Shown here one piece after another: positions 1,008 to 22,172 of a stretch of DNA of 22,172 bases. Position 1 is the first letter of the stretch. Each line of letters opens with the position of its first letter. Both the position numbers and the translations under genes were made by a program. Source of the stretch: a virus (Duplodnaviria; Heunggongvirae; Uroviricota; Caudoviricetes); IMG/VR virus record IMGVR_UViG_2585427761_000022; one strand, 5' to 3'. The notes below the pieces were generated by a model. The model made no database searches. It worked only from the letters and a program-made list of their open reading frames with translations, and had not been told where the DNA came from.

Positions 1008-1355
1008 TTACTTATCACATAAATCAAATGCAGCCTTAGTGACATCCCCCAGACTCTTTTTTAACCCTGGGGCGGCATCATTATCTAGCCAAAATGGATT
1101 ATTGTTATCTAACGGTAACGCACCAAATGTTTTACCTTTTATTCGAGCCAAACCTGTAAGTGCATATAACTTATTATCGTCAAAATTCATCACATAAGGA
1201 TTACCATCAAGACACTGTAATTGAACCTCATCAGTATTAAATGGCCATACCCCATTGAAACTCTCACGTTCAATAGTTTTAAAAGGCATTGCGACGGCGG
1301 AAAAAGAAAACATAGATAAAAAAGTAACTAATAGTTGAACCTTTTTTACTTTCAT
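1008..1355 (-). CDS. Small secreted/periplasmic protein (115 aa) with a cleavable signal peptide and two Cys; possibly DUF2511/YebY-like (memory only)
   Basis: N-terminal signal peptide MKVKKVQLLVTFLSMFSFSAVA; RBS GAGGT 7 nt upstream of ATG; AT-rich; co-oriented between int and the upstream membrane-protein gene. Confidence 0.7.
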   Translation of the reverse strand: MKVKKVQLLVTFLSMFSFSAVAMPFKTIERESFNGVWPFNTDEVQLQCLDGNPYVMNFDDNKLYALTGLARIKGKTFGALPLDNNNPFWLDNDAAPGLKKSLGDVTKAAFDLCDK

Positions 1356-1384
1356 ATCATTACCTCAATTTAGCTCAAGTAAGA

Positions 1385-2035
1385 TTACAAATTAAAAAAC
1401 GCCCTAGAAATGACACCGCCTACCAAAACCCCTACGCAGATAAAGAATATTATTTCTTTTGGATAAAGTCGGATTAATTCTGAAGCACGAAGTCGGACTT
1501 CTGGTAAGGTCGAACTCTCTGTGTGGCTTGATGCCGATTGTTGCTCTAACCACGACAATGCAGACTGTAACTGAGAACGAGTAAGATCGTTTAAACGTCC
1601 TGTACCGAAATTGATATGGCAATACCGCAGAAGTTTTTGTCGAAGTCCACAGTCTTCACTGTTACGTAGTAATAAACTTACAAGAGCCTTACAGGCATCA
1701 TGATCTTTACATCGCTCAAGCATTGCATGCAGAAAACTCTCCGCTGTTTTATATTGATTTACTGTCATATCATCAATACCAGCTACACCAATCTCCGCAT
1801 GTACTTTTTGCCAAATAATAAACGCTTCAGTATTGCTAGCTTCTGCAATAGCAGCAACCAAGCTATTTAGCTCCTTACGCTGAGCCTTAAGCAAAGGGCG
1901 ATCGTCATCATCATTATTCGAAGGGATTGCGATATTGACGGTCTGAGAACCATCATATCGCTCTATCTGAATATTCTTTTCGTGAAAATCACGCCCAGCA
2001 ACGCGATTGTTTGAACCGTTTGAGTTGACGGCCAT
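1385..2035 (-). CDS. C-tail-anchored membrane protein (216 aa), function unknown; N-terminus shares the motif NNR[IV]AGRD[YF] with the repressor C-terminus
   Basis: Strong RBS GGGAGGTG before ATG; single C-terminal hydrophobic helix IIFFICVGVLVGGVI; Cys-rich central region; separated from the repressor gene by three stops TGA-TAG-TAG. Confidence 0.75.
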   Translation of the reverse strand: MAVNSNGSNNRVAGRDFHEKNIQIERYDGSQTVNIAIPSNNDDDDRPLLKAQRKELNSLVAAIAEASNTEAFIIWQKVHAEIGVAGIDDMTVNQYKTAESFLHAMLERCKDHDACKALVSLLLRNSEDCGLRQKLLRYCHINFGTGRLNDLTRSQLQSALSWLEQQSASSHTESSTLPEVRLRASELIRLYPKEIIFFICVGVLVGGVISRAFFNL

Positions 2036-5027: not shown

Positions 5028-7685
5028 ATGACGGCAGAGTACATCAGGGACTGGCAACAACCGCGCCACGCAGTGGGGCGTGAAGGAACGGGGATCCCCG
5101 CTCCTGAATCCGCGCTTTCCTCCTGGCTGGATGCCTACCGGGCAGAGAACGAGCGCCGCCAGGAAATGGCTGATGCGGCGTTCTCCGCCACGCCGCTGGG
5201 CAACCTGATTAATAAAAGCCTGGACGCACAGGAAAAACAGGACAAAACAATCACACTGGCAGGAGACGCCAGAAAACAGGCACGCGGCGCGGTAGATGAG
5301 GCCATGGCCTCACTGCGCCTGCTGCCGTCCTATCTGCGCGATCCGCTTATTCGCCACCTCTCCTTCCTGCGCAAAAAACAGGAAGCCGATCGTCAGAAAG
5401 GAAAAAACGCCAGGCAGGCAGAACGCTATGCGCGTGGGACCCTGCGCAAAATATTCGAACGTCTGGAGCGCACCGATCACCGCTGGCTGACATCGGGTTA
5501 TCGCTCCCTTGCCGGACGTGAACGCCTGGACGATTTGCTTTACCTGCCGCAACTCAACAAACACCAGATACAGACGCTGGCCACCATGACGGCGGCGATG
5601 TTCAGCAGCACCTTCGAAAAACTCTGCGATGGTTTTGGCGCGACTGATGGCGAGCTGACCATGGATGTAACGCTGAAGGCGTATCAGATGCTGGCCCGCA
5701 TGGCGTTACACTTACACGCCATGCCTCCGCATTATGACGCACTGACAACAGACAAAGACCGGAGGCACGAACCGGACACAGAACTGCTGCCGGGCGCAAT
5801 CCTTCGCCTGACCTGTGCGGAATGGTGGAAACGCAAACTGTGGCTGTTACGTTGCGAGTGGAGAGAAGAACAACTCCGCGCCGCCTGTCTGGTTTCCAGA
5901 AAAACATCGCCCTATCTGAGCCAGGACGCGTTAAGCGAGTTTCGCGCACAGCGCGAGAAAACACGCGATTTCCTGAAAAGTTTCATGCTGGAAAATGAAG
6001 ACGGGTTCACGATTGATCTCGAGACGGTGTATTACGCGGGAGTAAGTAACCCGGTTCACCGTAAGGCAGAAATGATGGCCACCATGAAGGGGCTGGAACT
6101 TCTGGCCGAAGCCCGTGGCGACAAAGCGGTGTTTCTGACTGTCACCTGCCCGTCAAAATACCACGCCACAACGGAGAACGGTCATCCGAATCCCAAATGG
6201 AACGGGGCCACAATGCGCGACTCCAGCGATTACCTGGTTAACACGTTTTTTGCGGCGGTCCGCAAAAAACTGAACCGCGACGACCTGCGCTGGTATGGCA
6301 TCCGCACGGTGGAGCCTCATCATGACGGCACCGTGCACTGGCATATGATGGTCTTTGCACATCCGGAAGAAATCGACACCATTGTGTCCCATACCCGCGA
6401 TATTGCCATTCAGGAAGACCGCCACGAGCTGGGCAATGATATTACTCCGCGCTTTAAGGTGGAGTATGTCGACGGCTCAAAAGGCACGCCAACCAGCTAC
6501 ATCGCCACCTACATCGGAAAGAACCTGGACAGCCGCGCCGTGGATGGCATCGACCCGAAAACGGACAAGCCACGCGTGGACCACGAAACCGGAAAATCAA
6601 TGGCCGAGAGCGTGGAACGCGCCATCGGCTGGGCGCGTCTTCACCGCGTCCGCCAGTTCCAGTTCTTTGGTATCCCCCCCCGTCAGGTATGGCGTGAACT
6701 CCGCCGCCTTGCCAGTCAGATGGCCCGCAACCCGGAAGGTCCACAACGTCTGGAAAATGACGCAATGGATGCGGTACTCGCTGCCGCTGATGCCGGGTGT
6801 TTTGCCACCTACATTGAGAAACAGGGTGGCGTACTTGTTCCACGCAAAGACTACCTGATTCGCACCGCCTACGACCTCGCAGAAGAGCTGAACGATTACG
6901 GCGAGCAAAGCGTACAGATTTACGGGATCTGGTCGCCACAAATCGGGGAATCTTCCCGCGTGTGCACGCACCCGGATAACTGGAAGCTGGTAAGACGTAA
7001 ACCGGAAGCGGAAGACAGCGCCCGCGAAAATGGTTTTGACCTTCAGGGCGGCCCTGCCGCCCCTTGGACTCGTGGCAATAACTGTCCCCGTGTACAGGAA
7101 ACGGACAACAACGGGACAGAACAGCCGGAAGAACGGCCAGCACCGTGGCCGCAGCTCCCTGACGGCGTTGAAGTGAACGAATGGATGCGCTCACTGAAAC
7201 GGCACGAACGCCGGGCGCTGATGCGTTCGCTTCGTGACAAACAGGCAAAAAACAGCAGTGATGAAGCGCAGAGCTGGACACAGAGCCGCAAACAGCAGCG
7301 GCCTTTGCCTGATAACCACGAATTACTCGCTAAAGAATGGCGGGAGTCTGCTGAATCTCTCGGCCTGCATATCGGTGAACAACAGATGCAGCACCTGTTA
7401 CGGGGCGGCAGTCTGTACGTTGACGGCAGCATCATTGCACCGCAGGGATTTGAAATTGTACGCAAACCGGATACCCGCCTGGACAGCCGAATCACGCAGC
7501 TCTGGCAGCGCCTGAGCCGTAATCATGGCGTAAGCAGCACGGAGATCCGCCATAACCCGGTCGCCAGCTATCTGGCACAGCTGGGGGCATCAGACCCTGA
7601 AGCCGCCGCACGCCTGGCATCGCCCCCATCAGTTGCGGCGGAACGCGGTGCGCAGCCAGCACATCATCACGGGATGCCGCCTTAA
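5028..7685 (+). CDS. A: Replication initiation protein A (rolling-circle HUH endonuclease) of P2-like phages, 885 aa with a long C-terminal extension
   Basis: HUH-like motif GTVHWHMMVF and paired active-site tyrosines in TSYIATYIGK (Y-x3-Y); size and position as P2 gpA. Confidence 0.85.
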   Translation: MTAEYIRDWQQPRHAVGREGTGIPAPESALSSWLDAYRAENERRQEMADAAFSATPLGNLINKSLDAQEKQDKTITLAGDARKQARGAVDEAMASLRLLPSYLRDPLIRHLSFLRKKQEADRQKGKNARQAERYARGTLRKIFERLERTDHRWLTSGYRSLAGRERLDDLLYLPQLNKHQIQTLATMTAAMFSSTFEKLCDGFGATDGELTMDVTLKAYQMLARMALHLHAMPPHYDALTTDKDRRHEPDTELLPGAILRLTCAEWWKRKLWLLRCEWREEQLRAACLVSRKTSPYLSQDALSEFRAQREKTRDFLKSFMLENEDGFTIDLETVYYAGVSNPVHRKAEMMATMKGLELLAEARGDKAVFLTVTCPSKYHATTENGHPNPKWNGATMRDSSDYLVNTFFAAVRKKLNRDDLRWYGIRTVEPHHDGTVHWHMMVFAHPEEIDTIVSHTRDIAIQEDRHELGNDITPRFKVEYVDGSKGTPTSYIATYIGKNLDSRAVDGIDPKTDKPRVDHETGKSMAESVERAIGWARLHRVRQFQFFGIPPRQVWRELRRLASQMARNPEGPQRLENDAMDAVLAAADAGCFATYIEKQGGVLVPRKDYLIRTAYDLAEELNDYGEQSVQIYGIWSPQIGESSRVCTHPDNWKLVRRKPEAEDSARENGFDLQGGPAAPWTRGNNCPRVQETDNNGTEQPEERPAPWPQLPDGVEVNEWMRSLKRHERRALMRSLRDKQAKNSSDEAQSWTQSRKQQRPLPDNHELLAKEWRESAESLGLHIGEQQMQHLLRGGSLYVDGSIIAPQGFEIVRKPDTRLDSRITQLWQRLSRNHGVSSTEIRHNPVASYLAQLGASDPEAAARLASPPSVAAERGAQPAHHHGMPP

Positions 7686-8496
7686 CATTCATGAACTCAT
7701 CCTTTGCGGTGATCTGCTGGAACGGCAAAATTTGCACCCCCTCTTTGCCCCCGTTGGGCGCATGGATGAGCACGTTTTTAAACGCGCCACCACCACGCGC
7801 ACCCTGTAACGTTTCTTTCAGGGAGTCCATGCTTTCGCGGTTTACCTGCGCTGCACCGATGTAGATGATGCACCCGGCGTGGGATCCATTGTCGTAATAC
7901 AGTTTTCTGAACATGTCCGCCGAATGAGACAGGCTGGCCGAGAGTAATGCGCCAAGATATTCCGGCATGCCGTAAATTTCCTGGTTAATGTCCGGATTCA
8001 TCAGGTGGCACACTTTGCCAGGGCGAAACTGAAACGCATCCTTGCCATCCTGCACATACCACCATGATTCAAGATCGCTTCCGCGTCGCATGTATTTCGC
8101 CAGGGCGTGCCGTAATTTAAGCGGTTCGCCGAACATATTGCTTCGAAGCTCAAGGAATGCGTTACCGAACACAAACCAGTCCAGCGCCAGCGCCGAGAAA
8201 TCCTGCCGGGAAAGCAGCGGGTGCGGGATGTAGCACCCGAGCAATACGTTGCGCTTAAAGTAAAGCGCAGACTGATGCCAGGACGTTTGCCGGGCGGCTC
8301 TTGCCAGACCGTACCAGTCCACCGGGGTTTCATACCACCGCCCGTTATCAGCACAGTACATATTGTCCAGCAAATCATGCCCGGTCAGGCGATAAGGACC
8401 ATCAAAAGTGAATGCACTGAGCGACGATTCTTTCCTGAGCGCATCAGCGAGATCAATGCGTGAACTCATGCGCACTTTTTTATTTTTTCTGCTCAT
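7492..8496 (-). CDS. Q: Portal (capsid portal vertex) protein, P2 gpQ-like
   Basis: 334-aa ORF with conserved portal segment AAHRVPPQLMG; ATG overlaps the terminase stop (TGATG coupling); convergent with A. Confidence 0.85.
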   Translation of the reverse strand: MSRKNKKVRMSSRIDLADALRKESSLSAFTFDGPYRLTGHDLLDNMYCADNGRWYETPVDWYGLARAARQTSWHQSALYFKRNVLLGCYIPHPLLSRQDFSALALDWFVFGNAFLELRSNMFGEPLKLRHALAKYMRRGSDLESWWYVQDGKDAFQFRPGKVCHLMNPDINQEIYGMPEYLGALLSASLSHSADMFRKLYYDNGSHAGCIIYIGAAQVNRESMDSLKETLQGARGGGAFKNVLIHAPNGGKEGVQILPFQQITAKDEFMNVKAASRDDVLAAHRVPPQLMGAMPGVRRLQGLMPPAVPDSWRPGYGGSPCCLRHDYGSGAARAA

Positions 8497-10246
8497 CAGA
8501 ACTCCATAACTGTGAAACGCTCGTTTTCTCCTTCGCCGCCAATTGGTTCGTTAATGACAGCAAGCATGGTTGCCCACGCAAGGTCGCCGTGGCTGCTCCC
8601 CCTCGCGCGGTCCGTTTCGTAAGTGATAAAGCCGCCCGGTGTTTTCACCTTACGCACGGCGTTAAAGGCCGCGACCAGCTCGCGTTCGGCGCGATCGTAT
8701 TCCCACCGCCCGGCACGCATTATTTGCAGCATTTTCAGTACAAGCGACCGTTTTGATGACAGCGTGAAGGTGTACGGAATAGCGGCAGGGAAAAACCGTT
8801 TCACTATCTGATAAACAGCCTCCCCGTTCCCGCCCGTCACATCAATGCCGATGTGTTCCACGTTGTAGCGATACGTGAAATCTTCAATGACTCTGGCCTG
8901 TTCTTCAAACTCCAGCCCCTGAACGCGTCGCGTCTCCACCGTTCGAAAACGGCCACCAGGAACAGCCGGAGGAACCACCACGGACACAGCGCCGCTGTCG
9001 CCGTTGCCACTGCTGCCGTTTGCGTCATACCCAATCCATACCGGACGATTCCCCATCGGGCGGGGAGCAAAAGGTTTCCAGTCTTTCCAGTCGTCGTATC
9101 CGTCAACACCGCAGCCAATCAGGATATTCAGGTTAAATGCCGATTCCCCTTCGCGGACAAACTCACACATATAGAGATTGAGGAACTCGTCTTCGGTGTT
9201 TTCATCACGAATTTCGTCGATATCGGTGTGTTTCCAGCCGTGATTAACCACATCTTCCAGCGTGACAATTTGCCGCCACGTCCGGTCAGGGCAGATAAGC
9301 CCGTTATGCAGCGTTTTCCAGTCCACAGAAAAACGCTGGCGTTTATGCGTGGCCTTTTTCTCGTTCCAGCGGTCGCCGTTCCAGTAGGCGTATGCTTCGT
9401 GCGTTTCGGTGGATGGCGTGGAGAAGTAGGTGCGCCGCAATCCGCTGAGGGTTGCCATAGCGCCAGCCACCTTGCGCAGTTCAGCAAAGCGACTGACCCA
9501 GAAAAATTCATCAAAATAAAAATTGCCCGTATAGGACTGCGCCGACGCAGCAGAAGTGCCGAGAAAATGCAGCTCTGCGCCGTTGGAGAGGATGATTTTA
9601 TCGCCCCCTTTCAGCTCCACATCAACTTCAGCCGCAGCCTTCTGAATAATGCTTTTAAACTGGAACGCCTGACGACGCGACGCAGACAAAAAATCTGGTT
9701 ACGCTGGTAAGGTTGCGCCACATCGTCACGCAGCGCCATCAGCAGTGCTTCCTGTGCAAAATACCAGGTCGCGCCAATCTGTCGGGATTTCAGGATCATC
9801 CTGTTACGTATCCCGGCTTCCCTGCAAAGGGTCAGGGAGTCAAACCAGCCCCGCTGATGCCACTCCAGCCTGCTGATGATTTTTTCCCGCAGTGCGGCAA
9901 TCTGTTCCGGCGTGAAATGATTTTTGAGTTTTTTCGCCCGGCCTTTCTTTCCTGTGGCCGTCGCATCCGGCTGGCCATCATGCATTTTTTTAAGCTGCCG
10001 GGTCAGCAGGTCTATTTCCTTAAAGTCACCGCCTGTTTTATTCTGTTTTTCAGTAAGCTAGATGAGGCGCGCATCGATGGACTGCGTGACACGCTGCACG
10101 GGTGGCGTTTCATCCCACTGGTCGCGTTTTTTCCACGCATAAATCGTGTTCGGGTTTATTCCCATCAGACGTGATATTTCTGCGGGCGGATAACCCTGCC
10201 AGTAAAGTTGCCGCGCACGCTGGCGCACAAAAGCGTCCTGAATCAT
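8496..10246 (-). pseudogene. P: Terminase large (ATPase) subunit, P2 gpP-like, disrupted by an in-frame TAG (10058-10060) and a 1-nt frameshift in an A6 tract (9688-9693)
   Basis: Three ORF-track fragments (10058-10246, 9611-9985, 8496-9689) that read as one terminase when joined: N-terminal HTH-like region, Walker A-like KSRQIGATWYFAQEAL, then large C-terminal domain. Confidence 0.7.
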
Positions 10247-11260: not shown

Positions 11261-12313
11261 ATGAATCTGGTGATGTCAGATATTACCCGCAACAAGCTGG
11301 GTTGCTATATGGCGCAGCAGGCGTCGCTTAACAATATCCCGGTATCTGCACTGGTATCGCGATTTACCGTGGAACCCGCGGTGCAGCAGCGTTTTGAAAA
11401 CGCCTCAAAGGAAAGTACCGAATTTACGAAAAGAATTAACGTGATCGGCGTGACCGACCAGAAAGGCGAAAAAATCCTCCTGGACACCACCGGGCCAATT
11501 GCGCGCACGAATAGCAGTTATGACGGCATCAAACGCCGTAACCCGAATAACGTGCTCGATATGAAGTCTCGTCAGTACCAGTGCGAACAGGTGAACTACG
11601 ATACCTTTATTTCGTACCCACAGCTTGATACCTGGGCAGCCCACAGCGATTTTCAGTCCCGTATCAGTACACAGATCGCCCGGCAGGTAGCGCTTGATCG
11701 CATCATGATTGGCTTTAACGGCACATCCCACGCCTACGAGTCTGATTTTCACACCAACAAGCTGCTTCAGGACGTTAACGTGGGCTGGCTGGAGCACATC
11801 AGAACCGATGCCAGCGAGCGCGTAATGAATGACGTGACGCTGACCTCCCGCAACATGGACAACACTGTGGCGCACGCGGGTAAGTATGCGAATGCCGATG
11901 CTCTGGTACAGGATGCGCGCTCATCCCTGCTGGATGAATGGCACAAGGAAGCTGACGACCTCGCGGTGATTATGGGGCGCAACCTGTTTAACTCGCTGCG
12001 TCTGCCCGTGCTGAACAGCATCAGCGGCCAGAATCCCAATGCGGAATTACTTGCCGGGCAGCTCATCCTGTCATCGCGCACCATTGGCGGGCTGGGCGTG
12101 TTCCTTGCGCCGTTCTTCCCGGATGCAACGATGCTTATCACCTCGTTCAACAACCTGTCGATTTACTGGCAGAAAGGTTCAATGCGTCGCCTGATGAAAG
12201 ACGAGCCGGAATACAACCGCATCGCCACCTACCAGTCCATCAATGACGCTTATGTCGTTGAAGACTATGGCAAGTGCGCGATGATCACTGGCCTGAAGTT
12301 CGCCGACAGCTAA
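11261..12313 (+). CDS. N: Major capsid protein, P2 gpN-like
   Basis: 350 aa; RBS AAGGAG; recalled similarity to P2 gpN (FTVEP..., GFNGT, LSIYWQ, YVVEDY blocks). Confidence 0.9.
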   Translation: MNLVMSDITRNKLGCYMAQQASLNNIPVSALVSRFTVEPAVQQRFENASKESTEFTKRINVIGVTDQKGEKILLDTTGPIARTNSSYDGIKRRNPNNVLDMKSRQYQCEQVNYDTFISYPQLDTWAAHSDFQSRISTQIARQVALDRIMIGFNGTSHAYESDFHTNKLLQDVNVGWLEHIRTDASERVMNDVTLTSRNMDNTVAHAGKYANADALVQDARSSLLDEWHKEADDLAVIMGRNLFNSLRLPVLNSISGQNPNAELLAGQLILSSRTIGGLGVFLAPFFPDATMLITSFNNLSIYWQKGSMRRLMKDEPEYNRIATYQSINDAYVVEDYGKCAMITGLKFADS

Positions 12314-13262: not shown

Positions 13263-13757
13263 ATGAGTATGGTTGCCAGAACTGAACCAGGACCCGCAGA
13301 GGACGACATCACCGATACCGATGATGGCGACACTCGCATTTCAGCAGGTGCATTCTGGCCGGATATTGTGCTGCGCGAGCTGCGTCTGGCGGTACGACTG
13401 CCGGGCCGCGTGACCACCTCCCGCCTGCTGCATACCGCCACTGGGGCCGTGGCTCACGTTACCCGCGAACTGGAAGCGTGGCAGCAGGAACAGCAGGCGG
13501 CTGGCCATCAGACGCTGGCCGATGTTCCGGCACCCGTAATTAACGGAGAAAGCGTCAATCTCTGGCACTGGCGCAATGCTGTTTATACCGCCACACGTGC
13601 CCTGATTCTGGAGCGTTACCGCGATGCGGACACAACGGACAAGGGCGATCGCCGGGCGGACGCACTGGATATACAGACATCGGATTTGTGGCGCGATGTG
13701 AGCTGGGCCATCTCTGACATTCTGTGCCGCCCGCGAATCTTTGCGGAGTTGTGCTGA
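13263..13757 (+). CDS. L: Head completion/stabilisation protein, P2 gpL-like
   Basis: About 164 aa from ATG at 13263 with RBS AGGAG; position after M; stop overlaps the X start. Confidence 0.75.
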   Translation: MSMVARTEPGPAEDDITDTDDGDTRISAGAFWPDIVLRELRLAVRLPGRVTTSRLLHTATGAVAHVTRELEAWQQEQQAAGHQTLADVPAPVINGESVNLWHWRNAVYTATRALILERYRDADTTDKGDRRADALDIQTSDLWRDVSWAISDILCRPRIFAELC

Positions 13758-13957
13758 TGAAAGTGAAGGCACTGGAAGACGACACCGTGGATTCGCTCTG
13801 TTTCCGGTACTACGGCACGACGCAGGGCGTCACCGAAAAGGTGCTGGATGCCAACCCCGGACTCTGTCAGCAGGTATTTCTGGACGCCGGGCAGGAAGTG
13901 GAGATGCCGGAGCCGGAGAAGAAGAAACGAGAAATGATTCAGTTGTGGGGGGAGTAG
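13757..13957 (+). CDS. X: Tail protein X-like small protein (66 aa)
   Basis: ATGA overlap with the L stop; size and position as P2 gpX. Confidence 0.7.
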   Translation: MKVKALEDDTVDSLCFRYYGTTQGVTEKVLDANPGLCQQVFLDAGQEVEMPEPEKKKREMIQLWGE

Positions 13958-13959
13958 CA

Positions 13960-14283
13960 GTGAGCACCATTCAAACAGGGATCACAGAGCAGGTTATTGC
14001 GTGGCTCTTTGACCACCTGCCAACGGTGTATGCAGTAGGCGCGGCGGTCAGCATTTCAGCGCTGATGAGTCTTTATGACGGACGAACACTGGTTCAGACC
14101 GTAACGGGATCGCTGGCGTGCGGCGTTCTTGCCATGGCCGTGGCCGGGTCGTTGCGCTTCTTCGGGTTTCCTGAAGATGCCGTAACGTTTATCGGCGCAT
14201 CAATCGGTTTTATGGGGGCAGAGAAAGTACGCGACAAGGTTATTGCGGCCTTTAATCGCAGGGTGAAGGAGAAGGACGAATGA
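13960..14283 (+). CDS. Holin (about 107 aa, GTG start, multiple TM helices)
   Basis: RBS GGGGGAG before GTG at 13960; hydrophobic segments VYAVGAAVSISALMSL, VTGSLACGVLAMAVAGSL, VTFIGASIGFMGA; directly upstream of the endolysin. Confidence 0.65.
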   Translation: MSTIQTGITEQVIAWLFDHLPTVYAVGAAVSISALMSLYDGRTLVQTVTGSLACGVLAMAVAGSLRFFGFPEDAVTFIGASIGFMGAEKVRDKVIAAFNRRVKEKDE

Positions 14284-14672
14284 GCAACACATTTAAATTC
14301 AGCAGCCGGAGCGAAAAGAATTTGCAGGGCGTAAATCCTGATCTGGTGAAAGTGACCCGACGGGCACTGGAAATTTCGGAAGTGGATTTTGGTATCACCG
14401 AAGGATTGCGCAGCCGTTACCGCCAGAAGCAACTTGTGGCCACGGGTAAGAGCCATACCATAAACAGCCGCCACCTTACGGGGCATGCCGTGGATGTTGT
14501 GGCTTATGTCGGCAGCCAGGTGTCATGGGAATGGCCGCTGTACGAAAAAATCGCAGCAGCATTCAGACAGGCCAGCCAGGAACTGAATATTCCGGTGGAA
14601 TGGGGCGGCGACTGGAAGACCCTGAAAGACGGACCGCATTTTCAGTTACCACACGGAGCCTATCCGGCATGA
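14280..14672 (+). CDS. Endolysin, peptidase M15-type (zinc D-Ala-D-Ala carboxypeptidase / L-Ala-D-Glu endopeptidase family), not a P2 K-type lysozyme
   Basis: 130 aa; motif SRHLTGHAVDV typical of the VanY/M15 metal-binding site; between holin and spanins; ATGA coupling. Confidence 0.75.
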   Translation: MSNTFKFSSRSEKNLQGVNPDLVKVTRRALEISEVDFGITEGLRSRYRQKQLVATGKSHTINSRHLTGHAVDVVAYVGSQVSWEWPLYEKIAAAFRQASQELNIPVEWGGDWKTLKDGPHFQLPHGAYPA

Positions 14673-15142
14673 AGCTCTGGCCCACGCTTGGCGTCGCTTT
14701 CCTTCTGATTGCCGCATGGGGAACATCCATGCGTCTGTCGTGGTCGCTGGGCCGGGAGAACGCCAGAAACGAAGCGCAGACCAGCACCCTGAAAAGTACC
14801 GTCGACACACTGAATATCATCAGCGCCGGGGTACAGGATATGCAGCAGGTGCTGGCTCAACTCCGCGCGGAAAATCAGCAACGCAATCAGGACGGAGAGG
14901 TAAGACGTGAACAGCTACGCAACGATATTGCAAAAGATGAATGCGCCCACGCTTTGCCTGACGCTCGTTTTACTGACAGGTTGCGCAGGCACGCAGAACG
15001 CGCCACGGCCAGCGCCGTCAATCCGGCTTATACCGCAGACGCTGACCATGCCGGTAACGCCTCCCCCCTTCCCTGCCCCACCCACATGGGGAAACCTCGG
15101 AATATGGGGCGACCGCCTTCTGGATGCACTGGAAACCTGTAA
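14669..15142 (+). CDS. i-spanin (Rz / LysB-like), N-terminal TM plus coiled coil
   Basis: ATG at 14669 overlaps the endolysin stop; TM segment LGVAFLLIAAWGT followed by a Gln/Arg-rich helical region. Confidence 0.7.
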   Translation: MKLWPTLGVAFLLIAAWGTSMRLSWSLGRENARNEAQTSTLKSTVDTLNIISAGVQDMQQVLAQLRAENQQRNQDGEVRREQLRNDIAKDECAHALPDARFTDRLRRHAERATASAVNPAYTADADHAGNASPLPCPTHMGKPRNMGRPPSGCTGNL

Positions 15143-15218
15143 CGCGGATAAACGGGCCATTGCTGAACTGGATAAGAGAATAGCCGAACTGACACACCAG
15201 ACGGGAGTAACACAATGA
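14907..15218 (+). CDS. o-spanin (Rz1 / LysC-like) outer-membrane lipoprotein, starting inside the i-spanin gene in the +1 frame and extending past it
   Basis: Lipobox LLTGC; Pro-rich mature region; GTG at 14907 with RBS GGAGAGG (ATG at 14937 is an alternative start); classic overlapped spanin architecture. Confidence 0.6.
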   Translation: MNSYATILQKMNAPTLCLTLVLLTGCAGTQNAPRPAPSIRLIPQTLTMPVTPPPFPAPPTWGNLGIWGDRLLDALETCNADKRAIAELDKRIAELTHQTGVTQ

Positions 15219-17095
15219 CCAGTAAGAACTTTGCACTGATTACAGCCATGACACAGGCTGAACTGACCCGGAAAGTGAATGAATATCTTGCGAAGGGGTG
15301 GCATCTTCAGGGGGACACACGGGTAGCTTACGAGCCCGGCACCCCGTGGTATCTCATGCAGGCCATGGTGGCCGATGGTGCCACCGAGACGCCCTCTGAG
15401 CCATTACCAAACAACAAGACGCCGGAATGGTACTACGTGGTTGTGCTTGCCGGGCAGTCCAACGGCATGGCTTACGGTGAAGGGCTTCCGTTACCGGATT
15501 CTTACGATGCTCCGGATCCGCGCATTAAACAGCTTGCGCGCCGCAGTACGGTAACCCCGGGTGGAGAGGGTTGTACGTATAACGACATCATCCCGGCTGA
15601 CCACTGTCTGCATGATGTGCAGGATATGAGTACGCTGAATCATCCGAAGGCGGACCTGAGCAAAGGTCAGTACGGCTGTGTGGGACAGGGACTTCATATT
15701 GCCAAAAAACTACTCCCGTATATCCCGAATAACGCGGGGATCCTGCTGGTACCATGCTGTCGTGGTGGTTCGGCATTCACTCAGGGCGCGGAGGGAACAT
15801 TCAGTACGACCACGGGGGCCAGCCAGGATTCGGCGCGCTGGGGTGCGGGTAAGCCGTTATATCAGGACCTGATCGCACGCACCAAAGCGGCATTACAGAA
15901 GAACCCGAAAAATGTGTTGCTGGCGGTGTGCTGGATGCAGGGCGAATTTGACATGAGCGCTGCCACCTACGCACAGCAACCGGACCTGTTCACGGCCATG
16001 CTGAAGCAGTTCCGTACTGACCTTTCCGGATTTAACGCGCAGTGCCATGGCGGCAGTGCTGCAGTTATACCGTGGATTTGTGGCGACACGACGTATTACT
16101 GGAAAAACACATACGGCACACAGTATGACTCCGTCTACGGCGCGTACAAAAACAGGGAGAGCGACAACGTTTTCTTTGTGCCGTTCATGACCGACGGTAA
16201 CGGCAACAACACGCCCACCAACTTACCGGCAGAAGACCCGGATATTGCTGATGCAGGTTATTACGGCGCGCAATCCCGTAGTAATGGTAATTGGGTATCG
16301 TCAAATCGTCCGACACATTTCAGTTCATGGGCGCGCAGGGGCATTATTTCGGATCGCCTGGCAACCGCTATTCTGAACGCAGTTGGTCGAACCAGCGCCT
16401 TCATCAGCGGTACCGCACCGGAAATCAAACCCTCGCCCGGCGGCGACACTCCATCGGGGCCGTCTGATGGTGACACATCCGTTCGTACAGTCTCCCTGCT
16501 GCCGACAGCCGGAGAGGCTGCTGCGCAGGGCTGGACCATCACCGGCGGCAGTGTTGCGCTGGAAGATGGTGTGTTTAAGGTTACCAAGCAGAGCAATAAA
16601 ACTTGGTCCCTGATGCATCCGGTGGATGACGCAGTCTCCCTGCTGACACGGGGTGGCAGACTGAGCTGTAAGTTTCGACTGTCAGGCGCACTGACCAACA
16701 ACCAGTTCGGTCTGGGAATTTATCTGTATACCGATGTAGCGTTACCTGACGTCGTGGCGATGACCGGGACTGGTAACCCGTTCCTGATGTCGTTCTTCAC
16801 CCAGACCACAGACGGCAAACTGAATCTGATGCATCACAAGAAAGCCGGAAACACAAAGTTGGGTGAGTTCGGGAATTACAGTAACGACTGGCAGACGCTG
16901 GAGCTGGTGTTCACCGCCGGCAGTGCCACGGTTACTCCGAAACTGAATGGAGTGGCTGGCCCGGCATTCCAGGTCATAAAAGACAGTCTGACACTGGGGC
17001 TGAATGCGCTGACGTTAACTGATATCACTAAAAATGCCGCGTACGGCGTCGATATCGGCAGCCTGGTGCTGGAAATCAATAATCCCGCAGTATAA
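15215..17095 (+). CDS. NanS-p-like sialate (9-O-acetyl) esterase moron: N-terminal DUF1737-like domain, SASA/SGNH-type esterase domain, C-terminal putative carbohydrate-binding domain
   Basis: 626 aa; N-terminus FALITAMTQAELTRKVNEYLAKGWHLQG (DUF1737-like); catalytic-type motif VVLAGQSNGMAYGEG; ATG overlaps the o-spanin stop; no equivalent gene in P2. Confidence 0.7.
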   Translation: MTSKNFALITAMTQAELTRKVNEYLAKGWHLQGDTRVAYEPGTPWYLMQAMVADGATETPSEPLPNNKTPEWYYVVVLAGQSNGMAYGEGLPLPDSYDAPDPRIKQLARRSTVTPGGEGCTYNDIIPADHCLHDVQDMSTLNHPKADLSKGQYGCVGQGLHIAKKLLPYIPNNAGILLVPCCRGGSAFTQGAEGTFSTTTGASQDSARWGAGKPLYQDLIARTKAALQKNPKNVLLAVCWMQGEFDMSAATYAQQPDLFTAMLKQFRTDLSGFNAQCHGGSAAVIPWICGDTTYYWKNTYGTQYDSVYGAYKNRESDNVFFVPFMTDGNGNNTPTNLPAEDPDIADAGYYGAQSRSNGNWVSSNRPTHFSSWARRGIISDRLATAILNAVGRTSAFISGTAPEIKPSPGGDTPSGPSDGDTSVRTVSLLPTAGEAAAQGWTITGGSVALEDGVFKVTKQSNKTWSLMHPVDDAVSLLTRGGRLSCKFRLSGALTNNQFGLGIYLYTDVALPDVVAMTGTGNPFLMSFFTQTTDGKLNLMHHKKAGNTKLGEFGNYSNDWQTLELVFTAGSATVTPKLNGVAGPAFQVIKDSLTLGLNALTLTDITKNAAYGVDIGSLVLEINNPAV

Positions 17096-17118
17096 GGAAG
17101 AGCAGGAGAGCAAAACAG

Positions 17119-17586
17119 ATGCTTAAGACAAACAGTCTGCGAGAGTCCATGCTTCATGGATGTCGGTGGTGCCAGGCTAATCCCGAGAAATTCACCATTT
17201 TCGTGGAGAGCGGCAACATTGAAACGACCGGAGAAGCGCCCTCGTTTGTTTACCGCTATCAGATGGTGATGTTTATCATGGATTACGCCGGAGAGCTGGA
17301 CGACCTCACGCTGCCGCTGCTGGCGTGGTTATCCGAAAATCAGCCACAGTTGTTGCTCAATCCGGAGCGTAATCAGGACATCAAATTTTCTGCCGTTATC
17401 AATGACGATGACAGCGCCGATCTCCTGTTTACGCTCCCCCTGCGGGAACGCGTTCGCATCACGCGCAACAGTCAGGGCACACCGCAGGCAGAACACCTGC
17501 CGGAGCCAAAACCCCGTCTGCCTTCTTCCGAAGGCGACTGGTCGCATGTATTCCAGGATGTGACGTGGGGTGAAAGCGATGGATAA
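17119..17586 (+). CDS. R: Tail completion protein, P2 gpR-like
   Basis: 155 aa, same size as P2 gpR; RBS AGGAGAG; first gene after the lysis/moron block. Confidence 0.8.
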   Translation: MLKTNSLRESMLHGCRWCQANPEKFTIFVESGNIETTGEAPSFVYRYQMVMFIMDYAGELDDLTLPLLAWLSENQPQLLLNPERNQDIKFSAVINDDDSADLLFTLPLRERVRITRNSQGTPQAEHLPEPKPRLPSSEGDWSHVFQDVTWGESDG

Positions 17587-18214
17587 GGCATTCACCCGCG
17601 TGGATGAAACCTTTGAGGCTATCCGCGACAGCCTGAATCAGCAGGCCATCAATAACATCGCCAGAAAGCTGGCACAGGATTTACGTCGCGCCCAGCAGGC
17701 ACGTATCCGGTCACAAAAAGCGCCGGACGGGACCGAATGGACACCACGCAGACGCCGCGTAACCCGGATACAGGAGCGCATTCGCTTTATCTGGAATAAC
17801 GAAGCACGCACGCTGAAAAACTGGCATCACGACACGGGGAAATACGGGCGAACCATTACCGGGTGGGATGAGGATAAAAACAATATCCGCACGTTTTACC
17901 GGGATGACATCGACCGTTTTCTGGAAATACGCACCCGGCGCATCAACCAGGACAGCACAAAGCGCGTCCCCATGTTCGTAAAACTGCGCACCGCCCGCTA
18001 CCTGAAAGCCCGTGCAGATGCCTCCGGTGTGACGGTGGGTTACAGCGGCGTGGCCGCACGTATTGCACGCGTTCATCAGTTCGGTGAGCGCGATCAGGTT
18101 GCGCCGGGCATTTTCACCGATTACCCGGTACGTGAGCTGTTGGGTATCAGCCAGGCAGATGAGCGCCTGATTTATAACACGGTGCTGGGCCGGATTGCGG
18201 AGGCTGTACGGTGA
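17579..18214 (+). CDS. S: Tail completion / virion morphogenesis protein, P2 gpS-like (about 211 aa, longer than the ~150 aa I recall for P2 S)
   Basis: ATG at 17579 overlapping the R 3' end; position between R and V. Confidence 0.7.
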   Translation: MDKAFTRVDETFEAIRDSLNQQAINNIARKLAQDLRRAQQARIRSQKAPDGTEWTPRRRRVTRIQERIRFIWNNEARTLKNWHHDTGKYGRTITGWDEDKNNIRTFYRDDIDRFLEIRTRRINQDSTKRVPMFVKLRTARYLKARADASGVTVGYSGVAARIARVHQFGERDQVAPGIFTDYPVRELLGISQADERLIYNTVLGRIAEAVR

Positions 18215-18792
18215 GCGCAGAACTCATGCGACTGCTGAGCAACATCATCCGCACCGGGATCATCTCTGAAGTTGATGAGAAGTCCTGGCGCGTGCGCGTT
18301 CGCAGCGGCGAACTGGAAACAGGCTGGTTGCGCTGGAACACCACGCGCGCGGGAGCCTTCAATGTGTGGCTGCCGCCATCACCAGGCGAACAGGTGGTAA
18401 TTGCCTGCATTGGCGGCAACCCGGAAACCGCCATGATAATTGGCAGCCTGTGGAGTGATGCCAGTCCGGCCCCCGGCAAAAGCCTGAAAGAAATCGTGGT
18501 CAGCGCGCCGGATGGCGCGGTGTTCCGCTACGACGCAGACGCTGGCGCACTGAGCGCCAGCGGCATGAAAACAGCCACCCTGCAGGCATCCGTCAGCGTG
18601 ACACTGGATACGCCCGTCGTGGAATGCACAAACCTTCTGAGAACAGCGACGCTTGACGTCACAAAAGGGGGAAAGATGAGCGGCAATATCACGCACAGCG
18701 GCGGCAACTTCACCTCAAACGGCATCACAGTGCATACGCATAAACACGGTGGCGTTAAAGGTGGCAGCGATTCGACAGGAGGCCCGCAGTGA
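18211..18792 (+). CDS. V: Baseplate spike/assembly protein, P2 gpV-like
   Basis: GTG start with RBS GGAGG and GTGA overlap with S; recalled conserved block IRTGII..EQV.I..GG as in P2 gpV. Confidence 0.8.
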   Translation: MSAELMRLLSNIIRTGIISEVDEKSWRVRVRSGELETGWLRWNTTRAGAFNVWLPPSPGEQVVIACIGGNPETAMIIGSLWSDASPAPGKSLKEIVVSAPDGAVFRYDADAGALSASGMKTATLQASVSVTLDTPVVECTNLLRTATLDVTKGGKMSGNITHSGGNFTSNGITVHTHKHGGVKGGSDSTGGPQ

Positions 18793-20640: not shown

Positions 20641-22172
20641 CAGTGAAATACTACGCCATTCTGACTAATCAGGGCGCGGCGCGACTGGCTAACGCGACGA
20701 TGCCCGGCAGTAAGCTGAATCTGACGCAAATGGCCGTTGGTGATGCAAATGGTGTGTTACCAACACCAGACCCTGCACAAACAAAACTGATTAACCAGAA
20801 ACGCATTGCACCGCTGAATCTTCTGAATGTTGACCCTAACAATCAGAGCCAGATTATTGCGGAGCAAATCATCCCTGAAGACGAGGGAGGATTCTGGATC
20901 CGTGAGATTGGTCTTTATGATGATAAAGGTGTACTCATTGCGGTGGCAAACTGCCCGGAAACGTACAAACCGCAGTTGCAGGAAGGCAGTGGACGCACCC
21001 AGACTATCCGCATGATTCTGGTTGTCACGAACACCAAAGCCATCACGCTGAAAATCGACCCGTCTGTGGTTCTGGCAACCCGCAAATATGTGGATGATAA
21101 AATCTCAAAGCACGAGCAGTCACGACGTCACCCGGACGCCTCGCTGACCGCAAAAGGCTTTGTTCAACTCAGTAGCGCCACCAACAGCGATTCAGAAACG
21201 CTGGCGGCAACACCAAAGGCGGTAAAGGCAGCCTATGACCTTGCTAACGGGAAATATACCGCACAGGACGCCACGACAGCACAAAAAGGCATTGTCCAGC
21301 TCAGTAGCGCCACCAACAGCGATTCAGAAACGCTGGCGGCAACACCAAAGGCGGTAAAGGCAGCCTATGACCTTGCTAACGGGAAATATACCGCACAGGA
21401 CGCCACGACAGCACAAAAAGGCATTGTCCAGCTCAGTAGCGCCACCAACAGCGATTCAGAAACGCTGGCGGCAACACCAAAGGCGGTAAAGGCAGCCTAT
21501 GACCTTGCTAACGGGAAATATACCGCACAGGACGCCACGACAGCACAAAAAGGCATTGTCCAGCTCAGTAGCGCCACCAACAGCGATTCAGAAACGCTGG
21601 CGGCAACACCAAAGGCGGTAAAGGCAGCCTATGACCTTGCTAACGGGAAATATACCGCACAGGACGCCACGACGGCACAAAAAGGAATTGTCCAGCTCAG
21701 TAGTGCAACCAACAGCACATCTGAAACGCTTGCTGCAACACCGAAAGCAGTGAAAGCAGCTAATGACAATGCGAATGGTCGGGTACCTTCTGCCCGTAAG
21801 GTGAATGGTAAGGCGCTTTCGGCGGATATAACACTGACGCCGAAAGATATTGGTACGCTTAACTCAACAACAATGTCATTCAGCGGTGGTGCTGGTTGGT
21901 TCAAATTAGCAACGGTAACCATGCCACAGGCGAGTTCTGTTGTTTCAATTACGTTGATTGGTGGCGCTGGATTTAACGTCGGTTCACCTCAACAGGCAGG
22001 TATATCTGAACTTGTTTTGCGTGCAGGTAATGGTAATCCGAAGGGGATTACTGGTGCTTTATGGCAGCGCACATCGACAGGGTTTACAAATTTTGCCTGG
22101 GTCAATACATCTGGTGATACTTACGATATTTACGTTGCAATCGGAAATTATGCGACTGGTGTAAATATTCAA
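20637..22172 (+). CDS. H: Tail fibre protein, P2 gpH-like, 5' partial (open to window end); not in the supplied ORF track
   Basis: ATGA overlap with the I stop; open frame to the window edge; recalled similarity to the P2 gpH N-terminus (RHPDASLTAKGF.QLSSATNS.SETLAATPKAVKAAYDLANGKYTAQDAT). Confidence 0.8.
   Translation, partial: MTVKYYAILTNQGAARLANATMPGSKLNLTQMAVGDANGVLPTPDPAQTKLINQKRIAPLNLLNVDPNNQSQIIAEQIIPEDEGGFWIREIGLYDDKGVLIAVANCPETYKPQLQEGSGRTQTIRMILVVTNTKAITLKIDPSVVLATRKYVDDKISKHEQSRRHPDASLTAKGFVQLSSATNSDSETLAATPKAVKAAYDLANGKYTAQDATTAQKGIVQLSSATNSDSETLAATPKAVKAAYDLANGKYTAQDATTAQKGIVQLSSATNSDSETLAATPKAVKAAYDLANGKYTAQDATTAQKGIVQLSSATNSDSETLAATPKAVKAAYDLANGKYTAQDATTAQKGIVQLSSATNSTSETLAATPKAVKAANDNANGRVPSARKVNGKALSADITLTPKDIGTLNSTTMSFSGGAGWFKLATVTMPQASSVVSITLIGGAGFNVGSPQQAGISELVLRAGNGNPKGITGALWQRTSTGFTNFAWVNTSGDTYDIYVAIGNYATGVNIQ
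21168..21770 (+). repeat. In-frame 132-bp (44-codon) tandem repeat inside tail-fibre gene H: three identical copies, a fourth with 2 substitutions, and diverged flanking copies
   Basis: Copies start at 21168, 21300, 21432, 21564 and (diverged) 21696; unit encodes LSSATNSDSETLAATPKAVKAAYDLANGKYTAQDATTAQKGIVQ. Confidence 0.9.

Follow-up and report, generated by a model that had tools for sequence, protein, structure and literature searches.

A NanS-p-type sialate O-acetylesterase in the late genes of P88-like prophages: linkage with a capsid gene allele and possible capsid docking

The DNA analysed here, a 22,172-nucleotide stretch from IMG/VR record IMGVR_UViG_2585427761_000022 that we call the window, is an Escherichia coli prophage of the P88-like group (genus Xuanwuvirus, Peduoviridae), and among its late genes lies one for a NanS-p-family sialate O-acetylesterase (15215..17095, + strand, stop codon included). 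The open reading frame (ORF), taken from the window ORF list, starts with ATG and encodes 626 amino acids. An initial annotation, made from the sequence without database searches, had proposed a NanS-p-like esterase with an N-terminal DUF1737 domain and a C-terminal domain of carbohydrate-binding type, and all of this was borne out. The two motifs that it quoted were found at residues 6-33 (FALITAMTQAELTRKVNEYLAKGWHLQG) and 75-89 (VVLAGQSNGMAYGEG), and Pfam matches exceeded the gathering cut-off for DUF1737 (residues 4-53, 27.5 bits versus 24), SASA (residues 75-271, 47.6 bits versus 24.8), and DUF6645 (residues 477-587, 70.1 bits versus 27). The PHROGs family phrog_143 matches the protein from end to end (E = 0). 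In a PDB search, residues 69-388 aligned with the crystal structure of NanS/YjhS, 3PT5, at 57% identity over 320 amino acids and an E value of 1.3e-122, so that the likeness to NanS is far beyond chance; residues 431-623 matched the crystallised C-terminal domain of a NanS-p, 6YP6 (E = 3.7e-30). The DUF1737-SASA-lectin-like architecture of NanS-p is therefore present in the window protein, which has no signal peptide and which RefSeq labels only as a "DUF6645 domain-containing protein."

The N-terminal DUF1737 domain occupies amino acids 1-55 (15215..15379, +) and, judged by Pfam, domain identities, and an AlphaFold2 (AF2) model, belongs to a peduovirus-specific subtype that we call N2, with a conserved loop, A38-YEPGTPWYLMQA-50, within the same interval. 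It is followed by a hypervariable linker (linker 1, amino acids 56-70, 15380..15424, +), which is only 13% identical between the two P88-type alleles, has a ratio of nonsynonymous to synonymous polymorphism (pN/pS) of 0.91, and is modelled with a predicted local distance difference test (pLDDT) score below 50. The SASA/NanS-like SGNH catalytic domain spans amino acids 71-390 (15425..16384, +) according to the 3PT5 alignment and its block matches, and a lectin-like jelly roll, corresponding to DUF6645 and the carbohydrate-binding module (CBM) of NanS-p, takes up amino acids 431-626 (16505..17092, +) as judged by 6YP6, Pfam, and AF2. The AF2 model of the full esterase, built from a 33-sequence alignment, has a mean pLDDT of 70.8. 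Its C-terminal domain is all-beta at pLDDT 80-92, but around S82 and H368 the score falls below 50, which makes the model unusable for catalytic geometry. For this reason, the active site was assessed from the 3PT5 alignment.

In that alignment, block I of the esterase (G80-Q81-S82-N83-G) is equivalent to 17-GQSNA-21 of 3PT5, block II (R183-GGSAF-188) to RGGSAF, block III (M241-QGEFD-246) to MQGEFD, and block V (R365-P-T-H368-F-S) to R-x-S-H301-F-S. The blocks of 3PT5 itself have been tabulated as GQSNA, RGGSAF, MQGEFD, and R-x-S-H-F-S (PMC10792757). No variation is seen in any of the four blocks, S82 and H368 included, when 33 homologues are aligned. In SASA enzymes, a Gln beside the catalytic Ser is oriented by the QGE motif and forms an inverted oxyanion hole (PMC9487903). 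The window protein has Ser82 as nucleophile, Gln81 together with QGE for this hole, and His368 as base. The initial annotation had proposed to look for a Ser/His/Asp arrangement, which was an ill-set expectation: like NanS itself, the esterase has no block V Asp, and the Ser/His pair fits. Reviews likewise describe EcNanS as lacking this Asp and its catalytic Ser and His as backed by mutagenesis, and one states that the SASA/NanS family is most active on 9-O-acetyl N-acetylneuraminic acid (Neu5Ac). According to a review, all five NanS-p enzymes of O104:H4 strain C227-11 are active esterases; since this strain holds a P88-borne orthologue with 95% protein identity to the window esterase, a near-identical orthologue has probably been assayed already. 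A genome-wide association paper on "nan-9" turned out to treat another locus. From these sequence features, the window protein almost certainly belongs to the NanS-p sialate O-acetylesterases and would be catalytically competent.

The gene is tightly embedded among late genes, between the spanin genes and tail gene R as the initial annotation had placed it. Upstream lie X, a lambda-type holin, an M15 endolysin, Rz (DUF2570), and the o-spanin gene Rz1/LysC (15030..15218, +; Pfam LysC and the Prokaryotic Genome Annotation Pipeline annotation in 55989), whose stop overlaps the esterase start codon as ATGA (acacaATGAcc, 15215-15218). Downstream, a spacer of only 23 nucleotides leads to the start of tail completion gene R (17119..17586, +; Pfam P2_Phage_GpR, 1.1e-38), followed by gpS, V, W, J, and I. 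In P2 itself, again as had been stated, nothing stands between lysC and R; the two overlap, and the P2 record annotates a putative O-operon attenuator at this junction. A scan of the esterase region for promoters and terminators found no excess over shuffled expectation (2 promoter-like sites versus 3.1 expected) and no + strand terminator-like site flanking the gene. On account of the ATGA overlap with Rz1, the short spacer before R, and the lack of promoters or terminators above chance, we read the esterase as a late gene, and its expression from the late operon is highly probable on this sequence evidence. Further downstream, gpS directly overlaps gpV (window 17579-18792), and the O-operon terminator, orf30, and separate pV promoter region of P2 are absent; the P88-like late genes from O through the baseplate may therefore form one longer transcription unit.

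The designation of the gene as a moron holds only in part. It is indeed present or absent between near-identical phages, but it has no promoter or terminator of its own, shows no shift in GC content (GC 55.3% and third-position GC [GC3] 62%, against GC 53-61% and GC3 59-76% in flanking late genes), and lies in a segment that was replaced. The part that differs from the esterase-free phage P88 (15163..17190, +) comprises the 3' end of Rz1, the esterase, the spacer, and the first ~24 codons of R; alignment to the empty site of P88 places the last ~18 Rz1 codons (from ~15163) within it. Nucleotide homology to the lambdoid Stx1a nanS-p is limited to 15421-17080 (87% identity). The segment thus appears to have come by replacement of the Rz1 3' end and the R 5' end and not by clean insertion, and the esterase is best described as a built-in late gene, accessory yet not autonomous. 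The accompanying statement that lambdoid esterases follow the lysis cassette did not hold: in the four lambdoid cases compared (VT2-Sakai, Stx2a_WGPS9, phage 434, and one generic prophage), the nanS-p gene comes after Q/stx and before the holin gene, hence upstream of lysis, with DUF1378 and DUF826 next to it on the downstream side.

The window is 99.1-99.9% identical to a prophage of enteroaggregative E. coli (EAEC) strain 55989 located between yecA and the tRNA-Leu/Cys/Gly cluster, and the two esterases differ by 2 amino acids. The initial annotation had suggested a survey of the insertion site, and this gave the gene its accessory status. Scored as the block 13700-18300 at ≥80% coverage, the esterase-positive arrangement occurs in 373 of 5,426 complete E. 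coli genomes (about 7%); the empty site, queried with an artificial esterase-deleted junction, occurs in 657 (about 12%). The esterase is thus present in roughly 36% of the P88-like late regions in E. coli, and it is absent from phage P88 and from six further phages of Xuanwuvirus or Gemsvirus that have been sequenced. Carriers include EAEC 55989, the O104:H4 outbreak clone, and ST131. A second allele is found in the induced myovirus isolates vB_EcoM-705R2 and 569R5 and in one ST131 prophage, and the esterase of O104:H4 outbreak strains, including C227-11, is a recombinant of both alleles. In the O104:H4 allele (HUSEC2011, L013 2124-4004; identical in C227-11), residues 1 to ~211 are of ST131 type and the remainder is of window type; 30 of its 32 amino acid differences from the window-type allele lie before residue 212, a sign of ongoing intragenic exchange. 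NanS-p-like DNA detectable by megablast is present in 1,722 of the 5,426 genomes (32%), where the median number of places is 3 and the maximum 10, and such multiple copies are ample substrate for gene conversion among lambdoid, P2-like, and Mu-like prophages. A contig scan with the single protein yielded 5 loci only, in E. albertii and Escherichia sp. and as NanS-like genes in Proteus and a metagenome-assembled genome of Bacillota, which tells little about other genera.

Compared domain by domain, the esterase is a mosaic. Relative to the NanS-p of phage 434 and of Stx1a type, identity is 88-89% in the catalytic domain and 85% in the CBM, 29-33% in DUF1737, and 7% in linker 1; among ~176 full-length representatives, lambdoid-type proteins reach up to 98% identity in the catalytic and CBM domains. 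In their N-domains, the two P88-type alleles are 95% identical, and their catalytic domains differ by 6-15%, with the divergent linker 1 in between. The N-terminal modules of NanS-p sort into types, namely, several lambdoid DUF1737 variants that differ chiefly in the loop forming the capsid "tooth" in phage phi24B, the peduovirus type N2 with the loop [AS][YS]EPG[TV]P[WF]YLMQA, and a module that we call N3. In the phage collection, N2 was found in only 3 P88-like records at ≥80% identity, every lambdoid match being ≤37%. Across IMG/VR, 33 of 33 N2 loci are P2-like, with the gene between spanin and gpR. Further P2-like lineages (L056, which is lineage 3; L152 and L153) have the same arrangement, with a gpN capsid protein only 58-62% identical to that of the window. 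All phages in which N2 was found have a gpN capsid; besides the P88-like group, they comprise three or more divergent P2-like lineages with the gene likewise between spanin and R. A remnant of DUF1378, 50 amino acids long, persists in L056 between the esterase and gpR (12101-12253); because DUF1378 follows nanS-p in lambdoid phages, the module of L056 is of lambdoid ancestry, and the remnant is the footprint of a lambdoid-to-P2 transfer. N3, an unrelated module of ~110 amino acids with no Pfam match, replaces DUF1737 in Mu-like E. coli prophages. In two of these (L047 and L048, 10001-12049), a 682-amino-acid N3-type NanS-p follows tail-fibre, Caudo_TAP, and Gin-invertase genes and precedes DUF1378, DUF826, Com, and a Mom-like methylase.

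An exhaustive HMMER search returned few relatives of N2; the nearest, which are also the nearest outside E. coli, are single-domain DUF1737 proteins of 52-87 amino acids. These are candidates for a resident decoration gene that was later fused to the esterase, and IMG/VR yielded no locus for them. Within the esterase gene, the N-domain is the most constrained part, with a pN/pS of 0.08 as against 0.17 in the catalytic domain, 0.30 in the CBM, and 0.91 in linker 1, and the loop EPGxP[WF]YLMQA is kept across lineages whose gpN is about 61% identical. In the AF2 model, the N-domain is predicted as strand (5-11), helix (14-26), strand (30-38), loop (39-45), and strand (46-53) at pLDDT 60-82; its loop holds Y39, W45, and Y46 and is unrelated in sequence to the phi24B loop with Tyr42. 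N2 is thus under strong purifying selection, and selection has kept the esterase in several peduovirus lineages. By the pattern of identities, the catalytic and lectin parts are freely exchanged with lambdoid copies, the N-domain staying with the phage backbone. Neither the N2 subtype nor the linkage described below was foreseen by the initial annotation.

The major capsid protein gene gpN of the window (11261..12313, +; P2 family, identified through Pfam Phage_cap_P2 and the gpN of PDB 7JW1) is of an allele that we call B. Two locus sets were examined, each chosen on one variable, that is, esterase-positive loci or loci seeded with the alternative gpN allele, E. Allele B is present in 29 of 29 esterase-positive loci and allele E in 8 of 8 sequenced empty-site phages; all 73 independent viral-contig loci that were seeded with allele E and cover the site are empty, as are, in sum, all 81 allele-E loci. 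A comparison of 26 unique esterase-positive with 83 unique empty P88-like haplotypes found 32 fixed nucleotide differences in gpN codons ~40-218 and 2 beside the junction, but none in gpO, the 3' third of gpN, gpM, gpL, gpX, holin, endolysin, R, S, V, W, or J. Together with the bimodal identity described next, these fixed differences delimit an island of linkage disequilibrium at 11378..11914 (+) and include 9 amino acid differences, at gpN residues 85, 90, 99, 101, 103, 105, 159, 162, and 164. When sites are paired with esterase status, all four gametes turn up at 166 of them in gpO and at 88 in the interval that separates gpN from the esterase; recombination has thus shuffled both flanks of the island, and yet allele B was never split from the esterase. 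In the 5,426 E. coli genomes, identity to the gpN segment is bimodal, with 372 records at ≥99%, 5 at 95-99%, and ~708 at 80-95%; the first figure compares with 373 esterase-positive and the last with 657 empty-site genomes. Among the matches listed, the 4 genomes present in more than one match list are all concordant for allele and esterase. In P88-like phages, esterase presence is in complete linkage with gpN allele B.

A possible explanation comes from a preprint on phi24B, which reports, from cryo-electron microscopy and proteomics, that the NanS-p gp84 is an abundant virion protein, that its DUF1737 binds as a hexamer in the central cavity of the face-centre hexons of a capsid with triangulation number (T) 9 via the Tyr42 loop, and that its catalytic and lectin domains are subsequently cleaved off (bioRxiv 10.64898/2026.04.10.717836). 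Since this DUF1737 binds a capsid and the N-domain of the window protein is predicted to have the same fold layout, we propose a similar role here. The esterase would be co-translated with the spanins from the P2-type late operon, solely after induction, and, having no signal peptide, would leave the cell at lysis. It would strip sialic acids, whether free or bound to mucin, of their 9-O-acetyl (and 7/8-O-acetyl) groups and so make them usable by E. coli and by sialidases. The N2 domain, in turn, may tether the enzyme, or after processing the N-domain alone, to the phage's own gpN capsid. Such docking through a phage-type-specific DUF1737 would explain why the esterase and allele B never occur apart, and we consider it an evenly balanced proposition.

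Several observations count in favour of docking: N2 is restricted to gpN-capsid phages and Mu-like prophages have a different N-module; the catalytic and CBM domains are nearly lambdoid, whereas the N-domain is not; pN/pS is lowest in the N-domain; and the linkage with allele B persists despite recombination between the genes. Moreover, it is known that an external decoration protein, Psu of satellite P4, can sit on gpN hexamers, and P2 has none of its own. Among the P88-like loci, four (L027, L030, L033, and L044, with ORF starts at 10001, 5019, 7182, and 5488) have an esterase gene that is frameshifted or internally deleted, leaving ORFs of 218-286 amino acids. All four keep an intact N-terminal DUF1737, as one would expect if only the N-domain, as the part that binds the capsid, were essential, the number being too small for significance.

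There are also considerations that weigh against docking. Virion association in P88-like phages is proposed through the gpN linkage, the statistics of which are not corrected for phylogeny, each locus set having been picked on one of the two variables. The precedent is a single preprint, and no structure of the phi24B gp84 N-domain was returned by the PDB search; moreover, the phi24B domain uses only the flat face-centre hexons of a T=9 shell, of which P2-type T=7 shells have none. The fixed gpN residues (~81-100 and 154-159 in P2 numbering) fall in the E-loop/P-domain region and not at the hexamer-apex "sir loop" (183-224), where Sid binds, and across the P2-like lineages as a whole, no gpN residue tells bearers and non-bearers apart. 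The idea that esterase carriage has a universal mark in gpN was accordingly rejected, allele B being no closer to the gpN of other bearers. For an independent replicate within lineage 2, no esterase-free close relatives came up in IMG/VR. Among lambdoids, the 434-type DUF1737 occurs with two major capsid protein (MCP) families, PF03864 (lambda-E-type) and PF05065 (HK97-like), and a one-to-one match between DUF1737 subtype and MCP family was rejected for these phages. That the N-domain stays with the backbone could also reflect gene conversion confined to the homologous catalytic and CBM sequence, and at the active site the AF2 model adds nothing.

Some features of the window prophage bear on its own state. 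Relative to 55989 (L001 10939-13910), a deletion of 2,973 bp with 11-bp microhomology at window junction 7611-7621 cuts the 3' ends of gene A (885 versus 940 amino acids) and of the portal gene (334 versus 348 amino acids) and drops a parM-like gene, partition genes, and two small ORFs. At window 9688, a 1-nucleotide deletion frameshifts the terminase large subunit gene (- strand, ~8496-10246) at about codon 186, which would be a second inactivating lesion unless it stems from a sequencing error. From its sequence, the prophage in the window is likely to be defective, yet its esterase ORF is unbroken in spite of the lesions in terminase, gene A, and portal. Between the integrase and the CI-like repressor gene, two genes of low GC content (window 1008-2035, - strand; 35-43% versus 55-60% in the late region) encode a DUF2511 protein and a 216-amino-acid membrane protein with no significant Pfam match; they have the look of classical cargo for lysogenic conversion and are stronger candidates for morons than the esterase is. 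The tail-fibre gene region 21134-21635 aligns to 55989 in overlapping, offset segments of 89-90% identity, which indicates internal repeats or variation in repeat number. Outside the window, ~6 kb downstream of the esterase, the 55989 prophage encodes a hexapeptide-repeat acetyltransferase of 190 amino acids (L001 29575-30147, - strand). It bears the annotation serine acetyltransferase, its gene is flanked by the one for tail-fibre assembly and by tail genes, and its company with an O-acetylesterase in a single phage is curious.

The strongest competing explanation is that the esterase is a soluble "public good," freed by lysis of a subpopulation to supply sibling lysogens with de-O-acetylated sialic acid, and not associated with the virion; DUF1737 would then have another role, such as oligomerisation or folding, and the gpN linkage would reflect hitch-hiking or population structure. 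This is the published model for NanS-p, for which growth on Neu5,9Ac2 is reported to depend on nanS-p copy number, and it would suit an esterase that is intact in a prophage with a frameshifted terminase and truncated gene A and portal, as expected for a gene that benefits the host. The looseness of the 434-type DUF1737 with respect to capsid family and the lack of a universal gpN signature also agree with it. On the other hand, it leaves unexplained why fixed differences are confined to gpN amid four-gamete sites on both flanks, why the genome counts (372 and 373) correspond, why the N-domain is the most constrained part, and why N-modules are backbone specific. We regard it as possible but somewhat doubtful.

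An unlikely alternative is that the substrate is bacterial, i.e., that the esterase deacetylates a surface glycan such as O-antigen or capsule (O-acetylated polysialic acid being one example) to gain receptor access or free progeny from debris, like the tailspike esterases of other phages. This has been raised as a possibility in a review on STEC (Shiga toxin-producing E. coli) phages, and it would fit an enzyme carried on the capsid or virion. Some P88-like prophages with the esterase encode, near their tail-fibre genes, the hexapeptide-repeat acetyltransferase as well, but it is present in just 4 of the 7 bearer loci that reach this region, and no empty-site locus extends that far. Against this idea, moreover, display of sialic acid is not known for most of the E. 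coli that host these prophages, and the catalytic domain resembles lambdoid NanS-p, a family that acts on Neu5,9Ac2 and mucin sialic acids, at up to 98% identity, the SASA/NanS preference reported in review being for 9-O-acetyl Neu5Ac. Finally, it is highly improbable that the gene is a decaying passenger, a fragment brought in through recombination with lambdoid prophages of the same host and now without function in its P2-like setting: 4 of ~20 complete viral loci do have a broken esterase ORF and lineage 3 retains the DUF1378 remnant of its lambdoid donor, but most loci by far have an intact ORF of 625-627 amino acids, the three domains have pN/pS values of 0.08-0.30, the catalytic residues are all invariant, and the same site is held in at least three divergent P2-like lineages.

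As a whole, a NanS-p late gene of P88-like phages whose product is released at lysis and possibly docks to the capsid seems to us a reasonably probable account. A wider reading, which we advance tentatively and a little short of even confidence, is that NanS-p decorates the T=7 gpN capsid as a structural protein in P88-like and several other P2-family phages. In that case, the N2 domain and a co-adapted gpN allele (changed in the E-loop region 85-105 and at residues 159-164) would pair up, and mixed genotypes would be selected against.

The NanS-p family is already known; what is new is its P2-family context, the combination of a backbone-specific N-terminal adaptor with freely exchanged enzyme cargo, and the linkage with a capsid allele. 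So far, NanS-p has been regarded as a fitness or virulence accessory of Stx and other lambdoid prophages, but in about 7% of complete E. coli genomes, the same enzyme family is a stable part of prophages of the P2 family. Since the P2-family prophages of O104:H4, 55989, and ST131 carry it, a second, unrelated phage family mobilises the capacity for sialic acid de-O-acetylation. If docking is real, the "domain of unknown function" DUF1737 would become a general capsid-adaptor module, and these phages would offer a testable case of particles with a mucus-modifying enzyme, with bearing on the use of gut mucus by phages and their hosts. If the decoration reading is correct, P2-family phages would have, in NanS-p, their first self-encoded decoration protein, and an enzyme that modifies mucin sialic acid would for the first time be seen displayed on the head of a myovirus. 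Conceivably, the phi24B case would then generalise to a "capsid adaptor plus exchangeable enzyme cargo" in lambdoid, P2-like, and, with another adaptor, Mu-like phages.

Among known systems, the closest are the NanS-p of lambdoid and Stx phages (933W L0105/z1466; phi24B gp84, also vb_24B_21; phage 434 CPT_434_71), which share the DUF1737-SASA-DUF6645 architecture and, like the window esterase, are encoded by prophage-borne late genes and have no signal peptide. Overall protein identity is 79-80% to the phage 434 and Stx1a-type proteins and about 50% to the 933W type. In contrast to these, the window phage is a P2-like myovirus, its gene lies after the spanins and before R with no DUF1378 or DUF826, and its DUF1737 is a separate subtype, at most 37% identical. 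Chromosomal NanS (YjhS, 3PT5) shares the SGNH/SASA blocks and 57% identity over the catalytic domain of 320 amino acids, but it is a single-domain protein of the nanCMS operon that lacks both DUF1737 and the lectin-like domain.

With phi24B gp84 in particular, the window protein has in common the Pfam domain at the N terminus, a flexible linker after it, a predicted beta-alpha-beta-loop-beta layout, and an aromatic-rich loop where phi24B has its Tyr42 "tooth" loop. The loops themselves differ (VAYEPGTPWYL in the window versus ISTAGYGAEF in phi24B), as do the capsid families (PF05125, T=7, versus PF13252, T=9, with face-centre hexons). P4 Psu shows that gpN capsomers can bear an optional external decoration protein, but it has no relation to the window protein, being an all-helical dimer that satellite P4 encodes and that binds small capsids only; the paper on Psu and gpN describes no decoration protein encoded by a P2-family phage itself. 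Phage P88 (NC_026014) and its esterase-free relatives, lastly, have the same gene order and ~97% nucleotide identity across X-holin-endolysin-Rz and R-S-V. They differ in having no esterase, in the overlap of lysC with R, and in carrying gpN allele E, which is 10-12% divergent in nucleotide sequence from allele B over codons ~40-218.

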